Origin: Candidatus Latescibacterota bacterium
GTDB taxonomy: Bacteria; Latescibacterota; UBA2968; UBA8231
Length of the DNA: 64,000 nucleotides
Assembly (NCBI GenBank): GCA_965248265.1
Contig: CBDFJF010000002.1
Location: 1,664,001 to 1,728,000 of the forward strand
Direction of reading: 5' to 3'
The first letter of the stretch is position 1; each line of letters begins with the position of its first letter. Below, piece after piece: positions 12,867-22,622 of this stretch. The notes under the pieces were generated by a model. That model worked only from the letters and a program-made list of their open reading frames with translations. It ran no database searches and had not been told where the DNA came from. Position numbers and translations under genes: made by a program.

Positions 12867-13656
12867 CATCCGACGTCACATCCGAGTCATCGGACGCTTG
12901 TGGCTGATCTCGGTTCAGCGAGGCCTGGCCTTCCGCTGGCAATTCATCACCGATCTACTCAACGAGGCTGTCGCTGTGGCGCTGGCTTTGTTGATGTTCG
13001 ACATCGCCTACGACCATGCGCCTGAGATCGGTGGATGGGATCAGTGGCGGACGATGGTGCTCGTGGGCGTGTTCCAGCTTTACTCAGTGCTGCTGGCCAC
13101 GTTTTTGAGACCGAATTTGGGAGAGATGACGCGGACGATCTACGATGGCGATCTCGATGGCCTGCTGCTGCGCCCGGTCTCGGCGCAGTTGCTGATCTCC
13201 CTGCGCCAGATCCAGGTCACGGGACTGCTGCGCGTCTTACCTGGAGTGGCCGTCATCATCTACGCGCTGCAGGCTCTCGAGTACACGCCGAGGTCGTTCG
13301 ATGTCGGCGTCGCCGCTGCCCTGTTGCTTTCCGGCATCGTGCTGGTCTACTCACTCTGGTTCATGTCGATGACGCTGGAGTTCTGGTTTCAAGGGCTGTG
13401 GAGTTGGCAGCAACTGGTCCCCAATGTCTTCGCCTTCGCCCAATACCCGGCAGGGGTCTACAAGGGGACGATGAAGCTGCTGTTCCTGACGGTCGTACCG
13501 GTCGTGCTCGTGGCGAATTTCCCAACGCAGGCGTTGGTGGGTGAGTGGTCGGTCTGGACAGCTATGTACAGCATGGGATTGGCCAGTCTGTTGTTGATAC
13601 TAAGCAGTCTGCAGTGGCGTCTGGCTCTGCGGCGCTACACCAGTGCCAGCTCGTAG
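12847..13656 (+). CDS. ABC-2 family transporter permease, second subunit
   Basis: IYDGDLDGLLLRPVS, AQYPAGVY, C-terminal ALRRYTSASS. Confidence 0.88.
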   Translation: MEPTVDNIRRHIRVIGRLWLISVQRGLAFRWQFITDLLNEAVAVALALLMFDIAYDHAPEIGGWDQWRTMVLVGVFQLYSVLLATFLRPNLGEMTRTIYDGDLDGLLLRPVSAQLLISLRQIQVTGLLRVLPGVAVIIYALQALEYTPRSFDVGVAAALLLSGIVLVYSLWFMSMTLEFWFQGLWSWQQLVPNVFAFAQYPAGVYKGTMKLLFLTVVPVVLVANFPTQALVGEWSVWTAMYSMGLASLLLILSSLQWRLALRRYTSASS

Positions 13657-13729
13657 GCTGGCCGGCGACAAGTACAAAAAAACCATCAGCGCCGGCATTC
13701 CCTGCGAACTCGCCGGGAGACGTCGTCTT

Positions 13730-14665
13730 CTATTCAGCAACGGTACCGTACTTGGTCTGTAGCTGGGAAGGAATCCGGGCGGCGACTTGGAGCTTGAGTT
13801 CGCCCGTGTCTTCGACAAACGGGCGGGCGAGGTATTTCGCCTTGCCACCGATGTGAAGGATGGCGGGATCCGTCTTTCGCGTGGGCAAGCGGATAACGTC
13901 ACCCGCTGTTAGTTGCTCTGCCTCGGCAACGGTCACGGAGGTGCGGCCGAGGACGGCTGTGGTGGGCAGGTCCATGGCACCCACGCGGAGGCGATTTGCA
14001 TGGCGGAGCTCCTCGCCCGTAGCGCCTTGCCGAGGCGGGATGCGGTTTTGTCCAGATTGGTCGAAACTGGCCAGAATCGGCTGTAGGGTCCGGTACGGAT
14101 AGCACATCGAAATCCGGCCCTTCGCATTGGTCGAGTTCACTCCGAAAGCGAGCATGAGGACGATCTCGTTGTCGGGGACGATCGTCATGAACTCGGGGTT
14201 GGTTTCGAGCTCGATATCGTGGACCTCACATTCCACGACGCTCTTCCAGATATCTTCCAGATCCCAGATGGCCTGCCTGATCGGACTGACGAATATGCCC
14301 ATCTCGGTCTGCGATATCTGTCTCGGCTCGACGTCAGAGCCGCACCCCTTGCCGCCGAAGGCTCGATCGACAACCCCGAAGACGATCGGCATCTGGAAGT
14401 CAATGATGACCTGACCGTCATACATATCCTTCGGACCGAGGTGAAACTGATACGCCACACCCGGGTTGGACAGCGACTGGATGAACTCGCGGTAGGTGGT
14501 CTGATCGACAAACTCGATGTCGACATCGACGATCGACCGCATCAGGTTGTTGAAGGAAATATTCAAGAGCCTGGCGAATTCCTCGTGCAGGTTCTGCACA
14601 AACCGCATCTGCGCCTTGTTCATCCTGGCCGGGTGCTTGAAATCGTATTCTATGATCCGACTCAT
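13730..14665 (-). CDS. fliM: FliM-like switch protein (middle and SpoA domains) lacking the N-terminal CheY-binding peptide
   Basis: YDFKHP, HEEFAR, VDQTTYREFIQSL, DRAFGGKG, ETNPEF, CYPYRTLQP, C-terminal SpoA-like domain; ATG14665 overlaps the fliG stop (ATGA). Confidence 0.85.
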   Translation of the reverse strand: MSRIIEYDFKHPARMNKAQMRFVQNLHEEFARLLNISFNNLMRSIVDVDIEFVDQTTYREFIQSLSNPGVAYQFHLGPKDMYDGQVIIDFQMPIVFGVVDRAFGGKGCGSDVEPRQISQTEMGIFVSPIRQAIWDLEDIWKSVVECEVHDIELETNPEFMTIVPDNEIVLMLAFGVNSTNAKGRISMCYPYRTLQPILASFDQSGQNRIPPRQGATGEELRHANRLRVGAMDLPTTAVLGRTSVTVAEAEQLTAGDVIRLPTRKTDPAILHIGGKAKYLARPFVEDTGELKLQVAARIPSQLQTKYGTVAE

Positions 14666-15753
14666 GACGCAGGGTCTCCGTTGTCTTCGTCCGCCCGCGG
14701 CTCTTCCTCTCGCCGGCATCCCAGCTTTCGAAGGACGGCGGCCATTTCAGCCGCCTGAGCATCCATCGCACGCAGGACGTTACGCTCGACCTCGGACGTG
14801 CTCGCTTTGAGGATCTTTGCAGTTACCTGGGTGCCGCCGATTTCTGACCTGCCGGCAACGGCATCTCTGAACGACTCCTCGAGGTTGCTTTCCAGGATCC
14901 TTATCGCGGCTGGTGTCGCTTCGTCAATCGAAGCAATACGGTAGGCGACATCCGATTGCAGTCGTTCCGGGAGCTCGGCGAGGATGGCTCCGGCCTGTGT
15001 GGGTTCGAGTTGGGACAGCAACAGAGCGATAGTCTGGGGGTGTTCGGACACGATCCCGGGTGCAATCTGAGCGGCCGGCACCTTATTGAGGATGGTGAAA
15101 CGCGGACGTGACAGGTCAGCCATCGGCTCTGTGACATGCCTGGCCATGCGCATGCCGCGCGCACGTCTTACGGTTTGGTACGCAAAGTCGACGCCGCCCG
15201 TACGGATCCACTCACGGGCCTCCAGCTGCTGCCCAAAGGTGGCCAGATGCTCCTTCTGCGCTTCAACGGAGACTTGCGGGGTGTCCGAAATCGCTTGCGA
15301 CAGCTCGCAGAGCTCCCCGTAGGGGAAGGTGTCCGGGCCGATGATCTCGGCGGTGACTTGGACGCCCAGCGAAACCAGGACCAGGGCTGCCCGGTGGAAA
15401 TCGGCTCTGCCGTCCTGCCCGTCTTCGAGGGCCATGCTGCGCAGCAGGTGGGCGGCCTCTTCCGGCTGTCGCCAGACCGCCTCGAACACGCTGTCCGCCA
15501 CAATCCAGGCGGGCGCCTGGCGGACCGGCACAGTGCCAGAGGGAGGCTCATCGGCGGTCGGGGCCGGCGCGCCCATCTCGGTGTGGGCCAATCTGGGTGG
15601 CGACTCCGGCAGGGGCGGCAAGCTGGAGAGGTTCTCAACCAAAGGGGGGCGCCACTCCGATACTTGCGGAGAGCCCCCACGTAAGCCGTCAACATCCCCG
15701 AATATCCTCACGTCGATACCATCGGCGGTCGCAGTGTTCATATCGTCCATCAC
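14662..15753 (-). CDS. fliG: FliG-like protein (N and M domains) with an N-terminal extension and no C-terminal torque domain
   Basis: RAALVLVSLG, GGVDFAY, EHPQTIALLLSQL, LPERLQSDVAYRIA, GG linker; ends where MFxF would begin. Confidence 0.8.
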   Translation of the reverse strand: MMDDMNTATADGIDVRIFGDVDGLRGGSPQVSEWRPPLVENLSSLPPLPESPPRLAHTEMGAPAPTADEPPSGTVPVRQAPAWIVADSVFEAVWRQPEEAAHLLRSMALEDGQDGRADFHRAALVLVSLGVQVTAEIIGPDTFPYGELCELSQAISDTPQVSVEAQKEHLATFGQQLEAREWIRTGGVDFAYQTVRRARGMRMARHVTEPMADLSRPRFTILNKVPAAQIAPGIVSEHPQTIALLLSQLEPTQAGAILAELPERLQSDVAYRIASIDEATPAAIRILESNLEESFRDAVAGRSEIGGTQVTAKILKASTSEVERNVLRAMDAQAAEMAAVLRKLGCRREEEPRADEDNGDPAS

Positions 15754-16019
15754 TTGGGTGGGAAAAGCCGGGTGACGCGCAAGGTGAGCTGCTCCTCGCG
15801 GACATCGATGTCACCCTCGCCGCAAAGCTGGTCGTTGATGCGATAGGCGTACTGCTGTCCGGCGAGCATGTCCACGGCGATCACATCGCCAGCGTGCAAA
15901 GCCCGGGCTCGCTCGAGCGGCATCAAAGCGCGGCCGAGCTCGACGACGAGATCGACCTCGACATCCAGCAGATGGTTGAGGTTGGTGTGCTGAAGCGTTG
16001 AAATGGCGGTGTCAGTCAT
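15750..16019 (-). CDS. Divergent FliN/SpoA-family protein
   Basis: LLDVEVDLVVELGR...LHAGDVIAV...INDQLCGEGDI; 4-bp overlaps with both neighbours. Confidence 0.75.
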   Translation of the reverse strand: MTDTAISTLQHTNLNHLLDVEVDLVVELGRALMPLERARALHAGDVIAVDMLAGQQYAYRINDQLCGEGDIDVREEQLTLRVTRLFPPK

Positions 16020-16312
16020 GAGACGATCTCAGTGAGCCGTACGCCGAAATTCTCATCGATTGTCACCACTTCACCGCGGGCGAACAGTTTGCCGTTGAGG
16101 CGGACATCGACCGGTTCGCCCATCATCGTATGGAGGCTCACGAGTGACTGCTCACCGATGTTGAGGGCCTCATCGAGGGTCATGCGATGGCGGCCGATCT
16201 CGACCGAGACCTCGACATCGACCTCGTCGATCCGCGAATCCTTGTGAACGCTCTTTGCGGATGGCCGGGTGTCCCCCTTCGGGGCTGCCTTTCTCTTCGT
16301 TTTCGTTGGCAT
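16016..16312 (-). CDS. fliN: Flagellar switch protein FliN-like
   Basis: VEVSVEIGR...GEPVDVRLNGKLFARGEVVTIDENFGVRLTEI; RBS AGGAG. Confidence 0.88.
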   Translation of the reverse strand: MPTKTKRKAAPKGDTRPSAKSVHKDSRIDEVDVEVSVEIGRHRMTLDEALNIGEQSLVSLHTMMGEPVDVRLNGKLFARGEVVTIDENFGVRLTEIVS

Positions 16313-16329
16313 TTCTCACTCCTGTTGAT

Positions 16330-16770
16330 TCATGAGCTTGAGGCGTAACCGCTCGACCGACGGGTCCCGACAGGGAATAGATTAGGCCGGATCCGGATGC
16401 CGCCGTGCTCCCTGACATCGTCCTCGGCGGCCGGCCACTCCGTCTGCGCAATGTCCCGACGCATTTCGTCTACAGTCTGCCTCAGGATCTGCACCTCACT
16501 GGCGAGACCCTTGATCATGAGCGCCACATCTTCCAGCGTCAGCGACGGTGGATCCTGTCGCAGCTGCTGTTCGATGCTGGTCCACAGTTCCTCCCGCGCG
16601 GCACCGCTGCGCAGGGAGGTTGCTGCTTCCCATGTGACCTGATGCGACTCGTACTCCGTTCGGCAGCTCTCGCACTCACTCAGGTGAGTTTCGAGCTCGA
16701 CTCGTTCGTCATGGGACAGTTGGTCGTCGACGTAGGCTGACAGATTGCGTTCGCACGAATAGCAGTTCAT
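16330..16770 (-). CDS. zf-HC2 (ZAS) anti-sigma factor, soluble, with a coiled-coil C-terminus
   Basis: MNC...LSAYVDDQL...ETHLSECESC (HxxxCxxC); no hydrophobic TM segment; heptad-like LEDVALMIKGLASEVQILRQTVDEMRRDI. Confidence 0.85.
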   Translation of the reverse strand: MNCYSCERNLSAYVDDQLSHDERVELETHLSECESCRTEYESHQVTWEAATSLRSGAAREELWTSIEQQLRQDPPSLTLEDVALMIKGLASEVQILRQTVDEMRRDIAQTEWPAAEDDVREHGGIRIRPNLFPVGTRRSSGYASSS

Positions 16771-16783
16771 CTCTCTTACGACC

Positions 16784-17347
16784 TCATGCATCGAGATAGG
16801 GTTTGATAGCATCACGCACGCGTTTGCGCGCCCGGTGGATCCGGACTTTTACCGCGTCCTCGCTGCACGAGAGGATTTCGCCGATCTCCCGGTAGGCCAT
16901 TCCGAGCTGTGTGCCCAGAACGAAGACGAGGCGCATGTTTTCAGGCAGAGCCGCGATAGCGGCCTCGGCTTTCTTGGCCATTTCCTTTTGTATGAGCTGA
17001 TCTTCCGGGTTGGCCCCTCGCGCCATGGGGATGCTCTTCTCGGCGACCGTCTCGAGAGAAGAGAATGCAGGCCGCCGCTTGCGTGCCTCGGCCATGCAAC
17101 GGTTCGCTGCGATGCGGTAGAGCCAGGTCCCAAAAGCAGCCTCCGCGCGGAACGAGCCGATGCTCTTGAATGCCTGGATGAAGACCTCCTGGGTCAGGTC
17201 TTCGGCATCCTGATCGTTAGGTGCCATGTGGGTGCACAGTGAGTACACACGGTCCCGGTACAACTCGAAGACCCTGCGAAAGGCGCGGTTGTCTCCCTGC
17301 TGGCAGGCGGCGATGAGGGCGATGTCGGCGTCGTTTGACAAATCCAC
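16784..17347 (-). CDS. ECF RNA polymerase sigma factor (sigma-70 group 4)
   Basis: Region 2 DAEDLTQEVF...FGTWLYRIAANRC; region 4 YREIGEIL...VKVRIHRAR. Confidence 0.93.
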   Translation of the reverse strand: MDLSNDADIALIAACQQGDNRAFRRVFELYRDRVYSLCTHMAPNDQDAEDLTQEVFIQAFKSIGSFRAEAAFGTWLYRIAANRCMAEARKRRPAFSSLETVAEKSIPMARGANPEDQLIQKEMAKKAEAAIAALPENMRLVFVLGTQLGMAYREIGEILSCSEDAVKVRIHRARKRVRDAIKPYLDA

Positions 17348-17377
17348 TGCTCAAGTCAGTCTGGCATTCACAGAGTT

Positions 17378-17405
17378 TAGACGCAGAAAATGGCTACAGG
17401 TAACA
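17378..17405 (-). promoter_or_regulatory. Putative ECF-type promoter TGTTAC-N16-CGTCTA upstream of the sigma gene
   Basis: Minus strand reads tgttac-ctgtagccattttctg-cgtcta, ending 30 bp before GTG17347; resembles the ECF -35/-10 pattern (AAC...CGT) with one mismatch in the -35. Confidence 0.5.
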
Positions 17406-17633
17406 GGAAAATATGGCAAATGTAAGAGGGGCCCCTATCGCTACGATCTCGTGGGAGATGGCTGGCAACTACGGATGCGCCAGCTCTCGGAAGCTGGCTA
17501 CGCTTTTCTCGGCGCTGAGTATTCTCATCACGATCATATCAGACTATCATTTGTACGGACCTCAGTGTCAATGCGATTCGCATGGTGCTGAGGGTAGGCC
17601 ACGCGTCCGTGGATAAGTGGAACGAGAGACTCG

Positions 17634-18461
17634 GTGAACGATCAAATGCCCCCGCGTTTTAGAATACCTGCCTCGGTGTGGATCCTGGTATTACTGACAC
17701 TTGGCACCGTGCCTGCCAAAGCGCAAGGTGATTCGGCGGATGTGGACTATGATCTATTCCTCGGCACCATGGTGGATGATCCGGACAGGGCCGGCTCAGC
17801 ACCGTATCACCTGTGGCAGGTAGTCAATGACTCCTCAATCCCAGTCCAGTTTTCAGCCGCGGTCGGGTCGGTCTGGTCAGATCTCAGTCAATTGGACGCA
17901 GATCCGGCCACGCCTATCAATCTGCGGTTGGGCCGAAAGAACCGACTCGAACTCGGCGGTCGGGTAGACGGGGCGCTCACGGCCGGCGATGTCACCGGGT
18001 TCACCGTGGGCATGAAGCATCAGATTCACCGCTACTTCGCCTGGGGAGTGAACGTGCAGAAGGAAGATCAAAACGAGCGGGTGGGAGAGAAAAGCAGCAG
18101 GGGTTACGGCGGATCTTTCGTGTTCATCGCGAATGAGAATCACTTCCTGGGAACACCCATAGGTATGAAGTACAAATTCGGGGTCGGGCTCGGTGACGCG
18201 ATCAGCGCACGCGGTGCCGCCCTGAGATTGGCGCTGGAAGGCCGCAGCGACGTATCTGAATCGACGGATATCATCGGTGGTCTCAACGGGCGCGCTGTCA
18301 GCAGGGACTTCACGGACAATCTTGGGGTAGACGGCTTGCTCGGGACAGAAACCAGGTTGAGTGGCCCTCTGGCTTTACGGATCCTGATCGGTTTCGGCCT
18401 TGCCGGTGACGCCAGCCAGGACAACGCGCGAGGCAGTCTGTTTTTGACCTACGAGCGATAG
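17634..18461 (+). CDS. Secreted hypothetical protein, possible outer-membrane beta-barrel
   Basis: Signal peptide ending AKA; alternating amphipathic strands; C-terminal GSLFLTYER. Confidence 0.55.
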   Translation: MNDQMPPRFRIPASVWILVLLTLGTVPAKAQGDSADVDYDLFLGTMVDDPDRAGSAPYHLWQVVNDSSIPVQFSAAVGSVWSDLSQLDADPATPINLRLGRKNRLELGGRVDGALTAGDVTGFTVGMKHQIHRYFAWGVNVQKEDQNERVGEKSSRGYGGSFVFIANENHFLGTPIGMKYKFGVGLGDAISARGAALRLALEGRSDVSESTDIIGGLNGRAVSRDFTDNLGVDGLLGTETRLSGPLALRILIGFGLAGDASQDNARGSLFLTYER

Positions 18462-20606: not shown

Positions 20607-22622
20607 ATGTCTCAATTCTATCTCGACGGTTTACCAACCGCGGGTCGTCCAGGTTTTCGCAGACTCCTGCTCTCCTTGTTGATTCCTTTCTCCGTGACCG
20701 TGACTGCCTTCGGACAGTCGGTTCCAGATCAGTATCTCGATGGAATCGTTCTCGATGAACCGCTGCCGTCGCAGTTTGTCACCGGCCAGACGTATTGGGT
20801 CAGGGGCAGCCTCGAGAATCAGGGGATTCCGGCCATGACGTTCGCCTTCGCTTCGGAACGAGGGGTCCTTGAGCACCGGATTGTCGTCGCCAATGGGCGT
20901 TTCGAGCACCCGCTGGTCTTCAAGCACGCTGATGCCGGCCAGCATGACTTCCGCATCACTTTCTTTCCCAGGGGACAGCAGTTCTTCACCTCGGAAATAT
21001 TCCGCGGGATCGAGATCGTCGAAGGGACAGGCGAGATTGATACGCCATCGGCCTATTACGACGGCTTCATGGACACTGCCTACTTCCGACCCAACGCGAT
21101 GCTCGTTGATGCTGTCGAGTATCCGCCCCTATTCGTCACGACTGGTGGAAGCGTGGAAAGCGTCCTGGTTCTGGTTCCGGACGGCCACGGTGGACGCCTG
21201 GAACGGGAGCTGTTGGACGACGGCATGGATGGGGATCTCCGGGCCGGAGACGGGATCTTCACGATGACGGGTGAGCCCCATCGTCCTCCGGACGTGGACA
21301 TAGGGCCGTTCGGCAGTATCACCCTTGTCGTCGTTTTTCAGGATGCAACAGGGACGGATTTTCAGTTTACTGCCGAATGCGGTCTGGTCGGCGGCGAATT
21401 ACCGATGGTCCAGAAACTGAGTGACGATGCCTATCGGACAGATCACGCGGTCAACCTCGTCGACGACGGAACCCTGTTCGTGTTGAGTCAGCCCTTTGTC
21501 GATCTTCGCGCGATCGCTACTCGTTTCTATGAATACTTCGACGACGACTACGATTTTCTCGCCGTCCGCTCGGCTCTCCCACTGAGCAACGGTGCGCACG
21601 GATTCAACCGCAGCGTTCGCAACGACGTCAGCGGCATCGGTGTCCCCCTGTTCGACGAAACCGCGGAATTCGGCAGCGACGGACGCCTGCAGAGCGCCAC
21701 CTTCATCAACTTTCGTCTGCTGGGGCCGTTGGTTCACGAGCTCGCTCACAACTGGGCAAACTTCCTCGTTCCCTTTGGTGGTCTGTTCTGGAATGGCCAC
21801 TGGGGGGTGTCCGATGTCCAGGGAGTACTGGGAGGCAACGCCACCTTCATCAGAGATCTGGGCAATGGGGAATACGCCGTCCCCAGCAACGCAGGATCAT
21901 CATCCTGGGGGGGCTTCTATTCGATGATCGAACTCTACCTGATGGGTCTGGTAGGGGCGGAGGAGGTGCCCCCACATCAGGTGCTGATCAATCCCAGCAT
22001 CGTTCGCTTCGACGACTTGCAGGGCCTTATCGTGGCCGCGGACCGACTGGATACCATCTCCATCGGAGAGGTCATCAACGCCCACGGCCAGCGGTCGCCC
22101 TCTCACGAGGATACGCCCAGGGAATACCGGATGGCGACGGTGGTTATTTCGGACCGTCCGCTCACACCCGTGGAACTGACCTACCACGACCGCCAGGCCG
22201 AGTGGTTCGGTTCGGACAACAACAGCATTCACGCCTTCGCCGCGGCAACGGGCTTTCGGGCGACCGTCGACACGCATCTGCCGCCGTCGATTACCGCTGT
22301 GCTCGACGATGGGTTCGCGACTGCAGCGGATGGGTTACCGGGAACGAGCCCCGAACTGGAGCAGAATTATCCCAATCCGTTCAACAGCAGCACCATATGG
22401 CGTTACAGGTTGAACTCGACAACCGTGGCGACGCTGGATATCTACGCGGCGAATGGACAACGGGTAAGGAGAATCCCTCAAGGTCGCAGGGCAGCCGGGT
22501 ACTACACAATCAACTGGGATGGGACCGACGACGACGGCCATTCGCTCGCGACCGGCGTCTACATAGCCCGCCTGGCAGCGGGTGATGTCGTGGTCAACCG
22601 GAAGCTGACACTGTTGCGCTAG
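20607..22622 (+). CDS. Secreted zinc metallopeptidase-like protein with a C-terminal FlgD-Ig/T9SS-type domain
   Basis: Signal peptide; HELAH followed by GHWG; LLDDGMDGDLRAGDGIFT repeat-type motif; QNYPNPFNSST...WDGTDDDG...KLTLLR. Confidence 0.8.
   Translation: MSQFYLDGLPTAGRPGFRRLLLSLLIPFSVTVTAFGQSVPDQYLDGIVLDEPLPSQFVTGQTYWVRGSLENQGIPAMTFAFASERGVLEHRIVVANGRFEHPLVFKHADAGQHDFRITFFPRGQQFFTSEIFRGIEIVEGTGEIDTPSAYYDGFMDTAYFRPNAMLVDAVEYPPLFVTTGGSVESVLVLVPDGHGGRLERELLDDGMDGDLRAGDGIFTMTGEPHRPPDVDIGPFGSITLVVVFQDATGTDFQFTAECGLVGGELPMVQKLSDDAYRTDHAVNLVDDGTLFVLSQPFVDLRAIATRFYEYFDDDYDFLAVRSALPLSNGAHGFNRSVRNDVSGIGVPLFDETAEFGSDGRLQSATFINFRLLGPLVHELAHNWANFLVPFGGLFWNGHWGVSDVQGVLGGNATFIRDLGNGEYAVPSNAGSSSWGGFYSMIELYLMGLVGAEEVPPHQVLINPSIVRFDDLQGLIVAADRLDTISIGEVINAHGQRSPSHEDTPREYRMATVVISDRPLTPVELTYHDRQAEWFGSDNNSIHAFAAATGFRATVDTHLPPSITAVLDDGFATAADGLPGTSPELEQNYPNPFNSSTIWRYRLNSTTVATLDIYAANGQRVRRIPQGRRAAGYYTINWDGTDDDGHSLATGVYIARLAAGDVVVNRKLTLLR

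Follow-up and report, generated by a model that had tools for sequence, protein, structure and literature searches.

FliG, FliM and FliN are textbook parts of the flagellar motor, where they serve torque generation, switching and export. SigR-RsrA and SigE-ChrR are pairs of a sigma factor of the extracytoplasmic function (ECF) kind and a zinc-associated anti-sigma (ZAS) factor, a class whose textbook input is thiol or redox stress. Here we describe a six-gene operon that joins members of both systems, in which an ECF sigma gene and a ZAS anti-sigma gene are followed by genes for two FliN-like proteins (FliN1 and FliN2), a FliG paralogue (FliG') and a FliM paralogue (FliM'). The operon was found in the genome of Candidatus Latescibacterota bacterium (assembly GCA_965248265.1; 7.32 Mb in two contigs), within a stretch of 64,000 nucleotides (contig 2:1664001-1728000) that is here called the window, and whose numbering is used wherever no contig is named. 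We tentatively propose that this ECF-autoregulated operon may supply an accessory, torque-incapable switch complex that would act on or at the flagellar motor.

The last four products belong to the same protein families as the flagellar cytoplasmic ring, or C-ring (T. maritima FliG, 1LKV and 4FHR; the 8UMD series), and the window encodes FliG_N, FliG_M with its EHPQ motif, FliM with its GGxG motif, and three SpoA domains. Unlike in the C-ring, FliG_C and the CheY-binding peptide are absent, FliG' carries an N-terminal extension of about 100 aa, and there are two distinct FliN proteins. The set also differs in standing behind an ECF/anti-sigma pair and outside a flagellar operon, and its switch proteins all score below the NCBIfam equivalog cut-offs, whereas canonical copies are encoded elsewhere in the genome. 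The likeness to SigR-RsrA and SigE-ChrR lies in an ECF sigma followed by a soluble zf-HC2 anti-sigma with HxxxCxxC, behind an ECF-type promoter that is predicted to be autoregulatory. In contrast to those pairs, the anti-sigma here has a conserved fifth helix and C-terminal tail, and the operon carries C-ring paralogues as its cargo. The features of the operon, with Pfam E-values and open reading frames (ORFs), are as follows.

17377-17405, minus strand: putative ECF-type promoter, with -35 TGTTACC at 17399-17405, a 16-nt spacer and -10 GTCTAA at 17377-17382
16784-17347, minus strand: ECF sigma, 187 aa, GTG start; Sigma70_r2 (5e-18) and Sigma70_r4_2 (1e-12)
16330-16815 (ORF; probable coding sequence 16330-16770), minus strand: zf-HC2 ZAS anti-sigma, 146 aa; zf-HC2 (PF13490, 6.4e-10)
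16016-16312, minus strand: FliN1, SpoA-domain protein, 98 aa; FliMN_C (3.7e-21)
15750-16019, minus strand: FliN2, divergent SpoA-domain protein, 89 aa; FliMN_C (1.2e-13)
14662-15753, minus strand: FliG'; FliG_N (PF14842, 1.3e-14) and FliG_M (PF14841, 1.3e-22)
13730-14719 (ORF; coding sequence 13730-14665), minus strand: FliM', 311 aa from ATG 14665; FliM (PF02154, 2.4e-44) and FliMN_C (PF01052, 3.8e-10)

An initial annotation, made from the sequence alone, had described six co-oriented genes with three 4-bp overlaps between stops and starts, and the observation of a six-gene ECF/ZAS/C-ring operon holds. All six ORFs lie close-packed on the minus strand. The overlaps at 16016-19 and 15750-53 are given by the ORF ends, while that at 14662-65 is an ATGA within the FliG'/FliM' junction (...CCT GCG TCA TGA GTC...), with a GGAG 9-13 nt 5' of the FliM' ATG. 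The domain searches that the annotation had suggested (sigma, zf-HC2, FliG, FliM and FliMN_C) were run with Pfam and confirmed the gene identities. No terminator-like sites were found in 13300-17700. From the packing and the promoter, the architecture is that of an ECF sigma and its anti-sigma predicted to be co-transcribed with C-ring paralogues.

The ECF sigma scores 106.8 bits against NCBIfam model TIGR02937 (cut-off 42.9) and reaches no equivalog; it comprises only the sigma-2 and sigma-4 regions that mark ECF group 4, and its orthologues in linked loci are 46-70% identical. The anti-sigma belongs to the ZAS class in having a zf-HC2 domain, HxxxCxxC and an upstream Cys, and its gene is adjacent to an ECF gene in 19/19 genomes. 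Its pattern runs CxxC ... HxxxCxxC, then a fifth helix and a C-terminal IRxRxN.F tail, and nine positions are invariant across 16 sequences (C3, C6, H29, C33, C36, L84, G88, L89 and A90). Compared with 15 orthologues, which begin MNC, the protein probably starts at ATG 16770, with GTG 16815 a possible alternative. Hydropathy over 19 residues peaks at 0.96, and a membrane segment is accordingly not predicted.

About 30 nt separate the promoter from the ECF start codon downstream. Of 16 loci searched with a regular expression, 15 have the pattern TGT(T/A)ACC-N16-(G/A/T)TC(T/C)AA upstream of their ECF gene, and at the sixteenth (L108) a variant with a 17-nt spacer was recognised by eye. The region delimited by the initial annotation ends at 17405, which is the first base of the conserved -35 box. 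When the genome was scanned with a position weight matrix, the operon's own promoter was the top match genome-wide. No excess of sites was seen beyond it, with 4 matches to the core motif against 7.7 expected and 2 matches to the strict motif against 3.3 expected. The counts of the strict pattern in five relatives were likewise not above those of a reversed-pattern control, and in two of the five (G019 and G079) the sole strict match is the operon promoter. No flagellar or other genes bearing the promoter motif were found by these scans. We infer from the conserved motif that this sigma uses the promoter and so regulates itself. At the level of motif evidence, the operon would be the main or only target of the sigma, which would make the C-ring paralogues the output; the module is thus likely to be what the sigma delivers.

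Several further sites came out of the promoter scans. One, before a 252-aa sigma gene, was considered as an extra target and rejected: it turned out to fall within the coding sequence of that gene, which is conserved whether or not a genome has the system. The second-best match to the promoter model (23.8 bits) is at contig 1:771364-771394 on the minus strand, and precedes a short ECF-like ORF (...AELVRQAL...ELVRRY...) without an NCBIfam match, possibly an ECF gene that is related or has degenerated. In the relative G100, a candidate promoter site lies upstream of a 404-aa coiled-coil protein.

The switch paralogues retain the parts by which such proteins join one another, as had been noted initially for FliG EHPQ, FliM GGxG and the SpoA domains, all of which were found. 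FliG' begins with a proline-rich extension of about 100 aa (15460-15753) bearing a conserved W..P motif, followed by FliG_N (residues 121-209) and then by FliG_M, whose EHPQ is invariant in our alignments. The GGxG of FliM' (G104, G105 and G107) is also invariant. The two FliN proteins are unequally conserved, at 54-67% identity to type A orthologues (those with the window's gene order) for FliN1 and 35-51% to its orthologues for FliN2. Neither reaches the TIGR02480 cut-off of 84.05 bits (77.1 and 46.6 bits, respectively), while Pfam FliMN_C was matched in both. FliG' and FliM' similarly fall short of their equivalog models, with 131.7 bits against 226.7 for TIGR00207 and 190.9 bits against 219.6 for TIGR01397. 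As a side observation, all module FliG proteins, whether ECF-linked or not and even where FliG_N is absent, carry a proline-rich extension with a W-x-P ... (A/V)-x-x-(L/M)-P-P-L-P-like motif, and this extension is missing from canonical FliG copies.

The claimed absence of both motor input and motor output was also borne out for the window. FliG' has no Pfam match to FliG_C (PF01706), and in alignment it stops exactly where its relatives go on with an MFxF motif and about 90 further residues. A frameshifted remnant of FliG_C downstream was considered and rejected, as the roughly 20 codons between the truncation point and the FliM' start leave no room for one. In FliM', six residues precede the conserved YDF core, and comparison of N-termini found no LSQxEIDxLL-like CheY-binding peptide. 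The window FliG' is therefore predicted to be unable to generate torque. These losses, in which the initial annotation had seen the loss of only motility-specific parts, are confined to the window's lineage. FliG_C was found by Pfam in 10/10 relatives' module FliGs tested, so that the window protein is the only one of 11 to lack it, and three of those ten (L074, L076 and L149) keep FliG_C and have lost FliG_N instead. Loss of the CheY input is not general either: many of the relatives' module FliMs open with an LSQ(D/E)EID-type peptide or have a receiver domain fused to them. Only FliG_M, FliM and FliN are universal in the ECF-linked modules. At the position of the Arg in T. maritima MSKRAA, the ECF-linked relatives have E, Q, P or T, whereas canonical copies keep Arg; these copies keep the whole Lys/Arg/acidic-pair/Arg pattern that aligns to the T. 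maritima torque helix, whose residues we take to have the functional role ascribed to them there.

An explanation that must be weighed here is that the operon is a decaying remnant of a duplicated switch operon, in which a deletion took FliG_C and the FliM N-terminus. Consistent with decay, FliM' has a long terminal branch (0.94, where the median is 0.15 and the canonical FliM of the genome has 0.045), the window's is the single one of 11 module FliGs examined with Pfam that lacks FliG_C, and the switch proteins all stay under the equivalog cut-offs. The frames, however, are all intact, the stops and starts are coupled, and the promoter is preserved. Contigs from sequencing runs X5 and X6 (one sample, from a different study) span 13712-16400 (2689 nt) with 78 substitutions and no gaps, and cross the FliG' truncation junction without indels, which rules out an assembly artefact as the source of the trimming; a third run, X1, is near-identical to the window and is probably its source sample. 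Among the 40 differences listed of these 78, 34 lie in FliM', for which alone dN/dS was calculated. Relative to this strain, which is about 3% divergent, FliM' has 19 synonymous and 15 non-synonymous differences, giving a dN/dS of 0.23 (binomial p = 4e-5 against neutrality). The same truncation is seen in P0002, a 360-aa protein from another metagenome that is 68% identical to FliG', with the same FliG_N and FliG_M and the same ...LGCRRE... tail; identity is 75% across FliG_N and FliG_M and 46% in the N-terminal extension. The dN/dS and the shared truncation agree with the initial view that the module is not decaying, and we consider the remnant explanation highly improbable. By these comparisons, the trimmed form of FliG' and FliM' is taken to be lineage-specific, real and selected.

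Synteny in relatives, which had been put forward as a check, proved to be conserved: the order ECF-ZAS-FliN-FliN-FliG-FliM recurs at 31-69% protein identity. A FliM' alignment, run against a separate collection of contigs from one genome per species, picked up 79 FliM-like loci, 15 of which are linked to ECF/ZAS genes. Eight of these are of type A, with the window order, and seven are of type B, with the order ECF-ZAS-FliM(-FliM)-FliN-FliG... When an anti-sigma alignment was searched in 168 genomes of the phylum, a ZAS orthologue was found in 19, one copy each, distributed over 12/49 genera and three families. In 19/19 it stands between an ECF gene and C-ring paralogues; ten of these loci are of type A (including the window genome and one fragmented locus) and nine of type B. 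Ten proteins encoded next to the operon in the window were looked for at the linked loci and none was conserved there, so that the conserved unit is the six genes only. A tree of 82 FliM cores (LG+G4) places the window FliM' with ECF-linked copies in a starred five-row clade, nested in a starred 24-row module clade that includes kinase-type modules and stands apart from canonical FliMs; this was a quick tree, for which the program warns of long-branch joins. Several module-bearing contigs (among loci L074-L152) have record titles that read Gemmatimonadetes, Gemmatimonas phototrophica, Planctomycetota or Chloroflexi. Of these contigs, JABJJN010000029.1 and CAITNQ010000546.1 apparently belong to the window's own family, which points to inconsistencies in record labelling.

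The genome holds one flagellar set and many switch paralogues. A complete-looking flagellar cluster at 4.09-4.12 Mb of contig 2, far from the window at 1.664-1.728 Mb, has FlgB/C, FliE, FliF, FliH, FliI, hook genes, MotA, FliN, an export gate with FlhA, a canonical FliM starting ...LSQDEIDALL, and a sigma-28-like gene. Genome-wide there are 12 FliG_C, 11 FliG_M, 8 FliM, 15 FliMN_C and 10 flagellin matches, but only one FlhA, one full FliF and, by tblastn, one MotA, on which ground a second motor was rejected. In the main flagellar operon, fliF is directly followed by the next gene with no fliG between them (contig 2:4115953-4116108). Four near-identical canonical FliG genes of about 350 aa instead occur singly in unrelated contexts, and further full-length copies are more divergent.

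contig 1:265586-266641, canonical FliG, single
contig 1:710486-711529, canonical FliG, single
contig 1:1502012-1503193, canonical FliG, single
contig 2:750807-751862, canonical FliG, single
contig 1:384404-385618, divergent full-length FliG
contig 1:1704317-1705429, divergent full-length FliG

With one full flagellar set and canonical FliM, FliN and several FliG copies elsewhere, the operon is neither the organism's sole switch set nor part of a second motor, in keeping with the initial annotation. Other paralogues were seen in passing. Stand-alone FliG_C-like ORFs lie at contig 1:652067-652312 and 778633-779103 (their lengths are 93 and 247 aa, and the longer has two FliG_C-like stretches), and a solo, very divergent FliM with a tree branch of 1.67 and a DDDLQDLL-type N-terminus lies at contig 2:3293180-3294214.

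Around the operon, the neighbours within about 5 kb encode a major facilitator superfamily transporter, an aldo-keto reductase, an ABC-2 transporter (convergent), a cyclic nucleotide-binding protein, a DUF6567 protein, a methyltransferase, one protein without a Pfam match and one with an FlgD_ig tail. The last, at 20607-22622, is a 671-aa secreted protein whose FlgD_ig-type tail (...NYPNPFN...) is of a kind that typically serves as a sorting tail in phyla of this group, and it is unrelated to the operon. The switch genes thus sit outside flagellar operons, with no fliF, fliH, fliI or export neighbours in these flanks. Genome-wide searches for FliG_C, FlhA, FliMN_C, FliM, FliG_M, FliF and flagellin found matches in the window only within the module. 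The statement that no flagellar genes flank the operon accordingly stands for these families, while che genes, which it also named, were not searched for across the window.

The distribution of FliM-like genes in the same 168 genomes (matches at 1e-10) ties them to the flagellum. FlhA was matched in 65 genomes, in two of which (G125 and G162) the match is only a weak stretch of about 90 residues, and FliM was matched in 67, of which 61 are also FlhA-positive. FliM occurs in only 6/103 FlhA-negative genomes, namely five drafts (60-91% complete) and the closed genome G107. In genus g14, FlhA is found in 4/31 species and FliM in the same four. More than one FliM per genome is seen only in four families of one class. 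Among the 19 ZAS-positive genomes, 16 have a long FlhA match, the others being G162, G081 and G107. As related genomes are not independent samples, we treat this co-occurrence as a pattern and not as a statistic. It nonetheless makes doubtful the initial designation of the system as a non-motility one, since the genes are nearly confined to genomes with FlhA.

This pattern, in which the paralogues vanish with flagella, together with a FliG_N that is kept and conserved here, leads us to favour action at the cell's single motor. We infer the assembly of the complex, its docking, the inducing signal and the physiological effect as follows. The cytoplasmic zinc-finger anti-sigma would hold the ECF sigma until a cue, perhaps the thiol or redox stress usual for its class, freed it. 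The freed sigma would then read its own TGTTACC-N16-GTCTAA promoter, and all six products would rise together. FliM', FliG' and the two FliN proteins could assemble through the FliG_M(EHPQ)-FliM(GGxG) and SpoA interfaces, and the complex would most likely dock at the single MS ring (membrane/supramembrane ring) through the conserved FliG_N. The added subunits would be torque-dead and chemotaxis-blind, because the stator-facing FliG_C and the CheY-docking peptide are absent in this lineage, and the result may be a conditional down-tuning or uncoupling of the motor.

Several observations weigh against this proposal. The regulon argument is made entirely from motif matches, and the co-occurrence with FlhA could reflect an origin by duplication followed by co-loss. 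To our knowledge, FliG_N is the only MS-ring anchor known, and the three ECF-linked FliGs that lack it indicate that docking to FliF is not universal in the family. The anti-sigma has about 60 conserved residues past its sigma-binding domain, for which purely transcriptional control of an effector has no need. Sister modules, described below, have sensor-like architectures with a histidine kinase in place of FliG_C or with an FGE-sulfatase (formylglycine-generating enzyme) domain. Finally, G107, a closed genome of 8.4 Mb, has no FlhA and no full FlhB, yet has intact FliM', FliN and FliG' ORFs. Its flagellar remnant (contig 1:4513000-4523000, loci L184-L185) runs through flgB, fliE, fliF, fliH, fliI and fliJ directly into a sigma-28-like gene. 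Between fliJ and fliA it lacks the segment with the hook genes, motA, fliM/N and the export gate, while several C-ring modules remain. This genome cuts both ways, because its ECF gene carries a frameshift and its FliM' sits on a long branch, and indel errors are possible, as fliA is frameshifted in the same assembly.

Sister modules were found both in this genome and in relatives. In the window's genome, at contig 1:357620-364676 (locus L183:1620-8676), a module beside a sigma-54 activator with receiver (REC), AAA+ and HTH domains comprises a FliM', two FliN proteins, one of which is fused to an FGE-sulfatase domain, and a FliG-kinase hybrid. The hybrid (1031 aa) reads FliG_N-FliG_M-HisKA-HATPase_c-REC, with the kinase in place of FliG_C. 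This fusion recurs whole in L106 (1030 aa) and, with HisKA only, on a 752-aa ORF in L078. FGE-sulfatase is also found at the N-terminus of a full FliG of about 690 aa (L132, L140, L123, L137 and L139) and C-terminally on a FliN (L075:2906-3913). In type B loci, the first FliM', directly behind the anti-sigma, can carry one or two N-terminal receiver domains followed by a CheY-type peptide; the receivers of L132, L134 and L140 pass the Pfam cut-off, those of L125 and L144 match weakly, and L135 and L142 have none. A further, orphan FliN-FliN-FliG-FliM module without ECF/ZAS lies at contig 2:272854-275574; its FliG has all three domains, with Glu for the torque-helix Arg, and its FliM has no CheY peptide. 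Sister architectures such as the FliG-kinase fusions would be difficult to accommodate in a rotor and indicate that the module family is used in signalling, in line with that part of the initial annotation.

These architectures bring into play the motility-independent scaffold proposed initially, in which a free cytoplasmic complex of FliM', FliG' and FliN would bind or release the anti-sigma and so control the ECF sigma, by analogy with the presumed control of a fused histidine kinase in sister modules. The kinase hybrid beside its sigma-54 activator, with the fusions in L106 and L078, fits this, as do the receiver-FliM' fusions behind the anti-sigma in type B loci (3/7 above the cut-off and 2/7 weak). 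So do the universality of FliG_M, FliM and FliN alone, the conserved extra helix and tail of the anti-sigma, the persistence of modules in G107 without FlhA or FlhB, and the place of the window FliM' in the 24-row clade with kinase-type modules. Yet a device independent of the flagellum should outlast flagellar loss, and FliM-like genes occur in just those six of 103 FlhA-negative genomes. Moreover, the motif scans detected no sigma targets past the operon itself, and the CheY peptide, the presumed input, is absent in the window lineage. A complex prediction for FliM', FliN1 and FliN2 with the anti-sigma as partner gave a score of 0.00, which is evidence neither way. We regard such a scaffold as rather unlikely for the window operon, though as a strong rival to action at the motor.

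The same findings bear on a motor-state or assembly checkpoint, in which the module would sit at the basal body and report its state to the ECF sigma via the anti-sigma, the real targets having been missed. Its analogues would be FlgM/sigma-28 or the FlgS kinase, which senses MS-ring and C-ring formation in Campylobacter. Such a role would suit the nesting of the modules inside flagellated genomes, the FliG_N retained and conserved both here and in the kinase fusions, the strict ECF/ZAS linkage and the extra conserved anti-sigma segments. Against it speak the motif scans, which found no flagellar or other gene with the promoter motif, the three ECF-linked relatives that have no FliG_N, and the canonical sigma-28 gene already present in the flagellar cluster, and we judge it distinctly unlikely. 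Both the scaffold and the checkpoint nevertheless stay close to our preferred reading of a complex acting at the motor, on account of the fusions to kinases and receivers, the variable loss of FliG_N or FliG_C and the extra conserved helix of the anti-sigma.

Beyond the single operon, we consider it conceivable, if somewhat doubtful, that Latescibacterota have turned the switch complex into a general-purpose allosteric signalling device with no role in torque, of which the window operon would be a trimmed member. A CheY-type phospho-input, via the FliM peptide or a fused receiver, would then be passed to transcription by what sits at the FliG end or next to it. The outputs would be a fused histidine kinase acting on a sigma-54 activator, or an anti-sigma holding an ECF sigma. 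Overall, the initial interpretation stands in that the operon is a conserved unit, not the main switch, not decaying, and a member of a family with signalling features; it is not supported as worded on the loss of only motility parts, which is lineage-specific, and its setting of the system apart from motility is doubtful.

In a full-text search of literature outside subscription, we found no paper on C-ring paralogues linked to an ECF sigma, or on FliG-kinase fusions. The main text of the ECF re-classification paper, leaving its supplements aside, does not mention FliG, FliM or FliN (PMC7826278). The present data assign a cargo to an ECF group without a described function, namely FliG, FliM and FliN, which are conserved behind a sigma factor and its anti-sigma. 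Should the modules work at the motor, a rotary machine would be tuned through controlled delivery of rotor subunits that are defective or alternative; should they work elsewhere, they would make up a new class of scaffold for signal transduction, descended from the switch. In both cases they offer a concrete, testable system for how a conformational switch complex gets rewired.

Within this family, the window operon and its sister modules share homologous FliM'/FliN/FliN/FliG' sets of the same FliM clade, each beside a transcription regulator. They differ in that the sister modules have their input or output domain covalently fused, whereas the window has a separate sigma and anti-sigma and lacks both end domains. 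Among systems known from other bacteria, the YcgR-type brake and the EpsE clutch control the motor, and the FlgM/sigma-28 and FlgS/FlgR checkpoints control transcription. The system proposed here would resemble them in effecting a conditional change of motor output or a coupling of the basal body to transcription. The agents in those cases are a PilZ protein, a glycosyltransferase, a secreted anti-sigma and a stand-alone kinase, whereas here the rotor and switch proteins' own paralogues would play that part.

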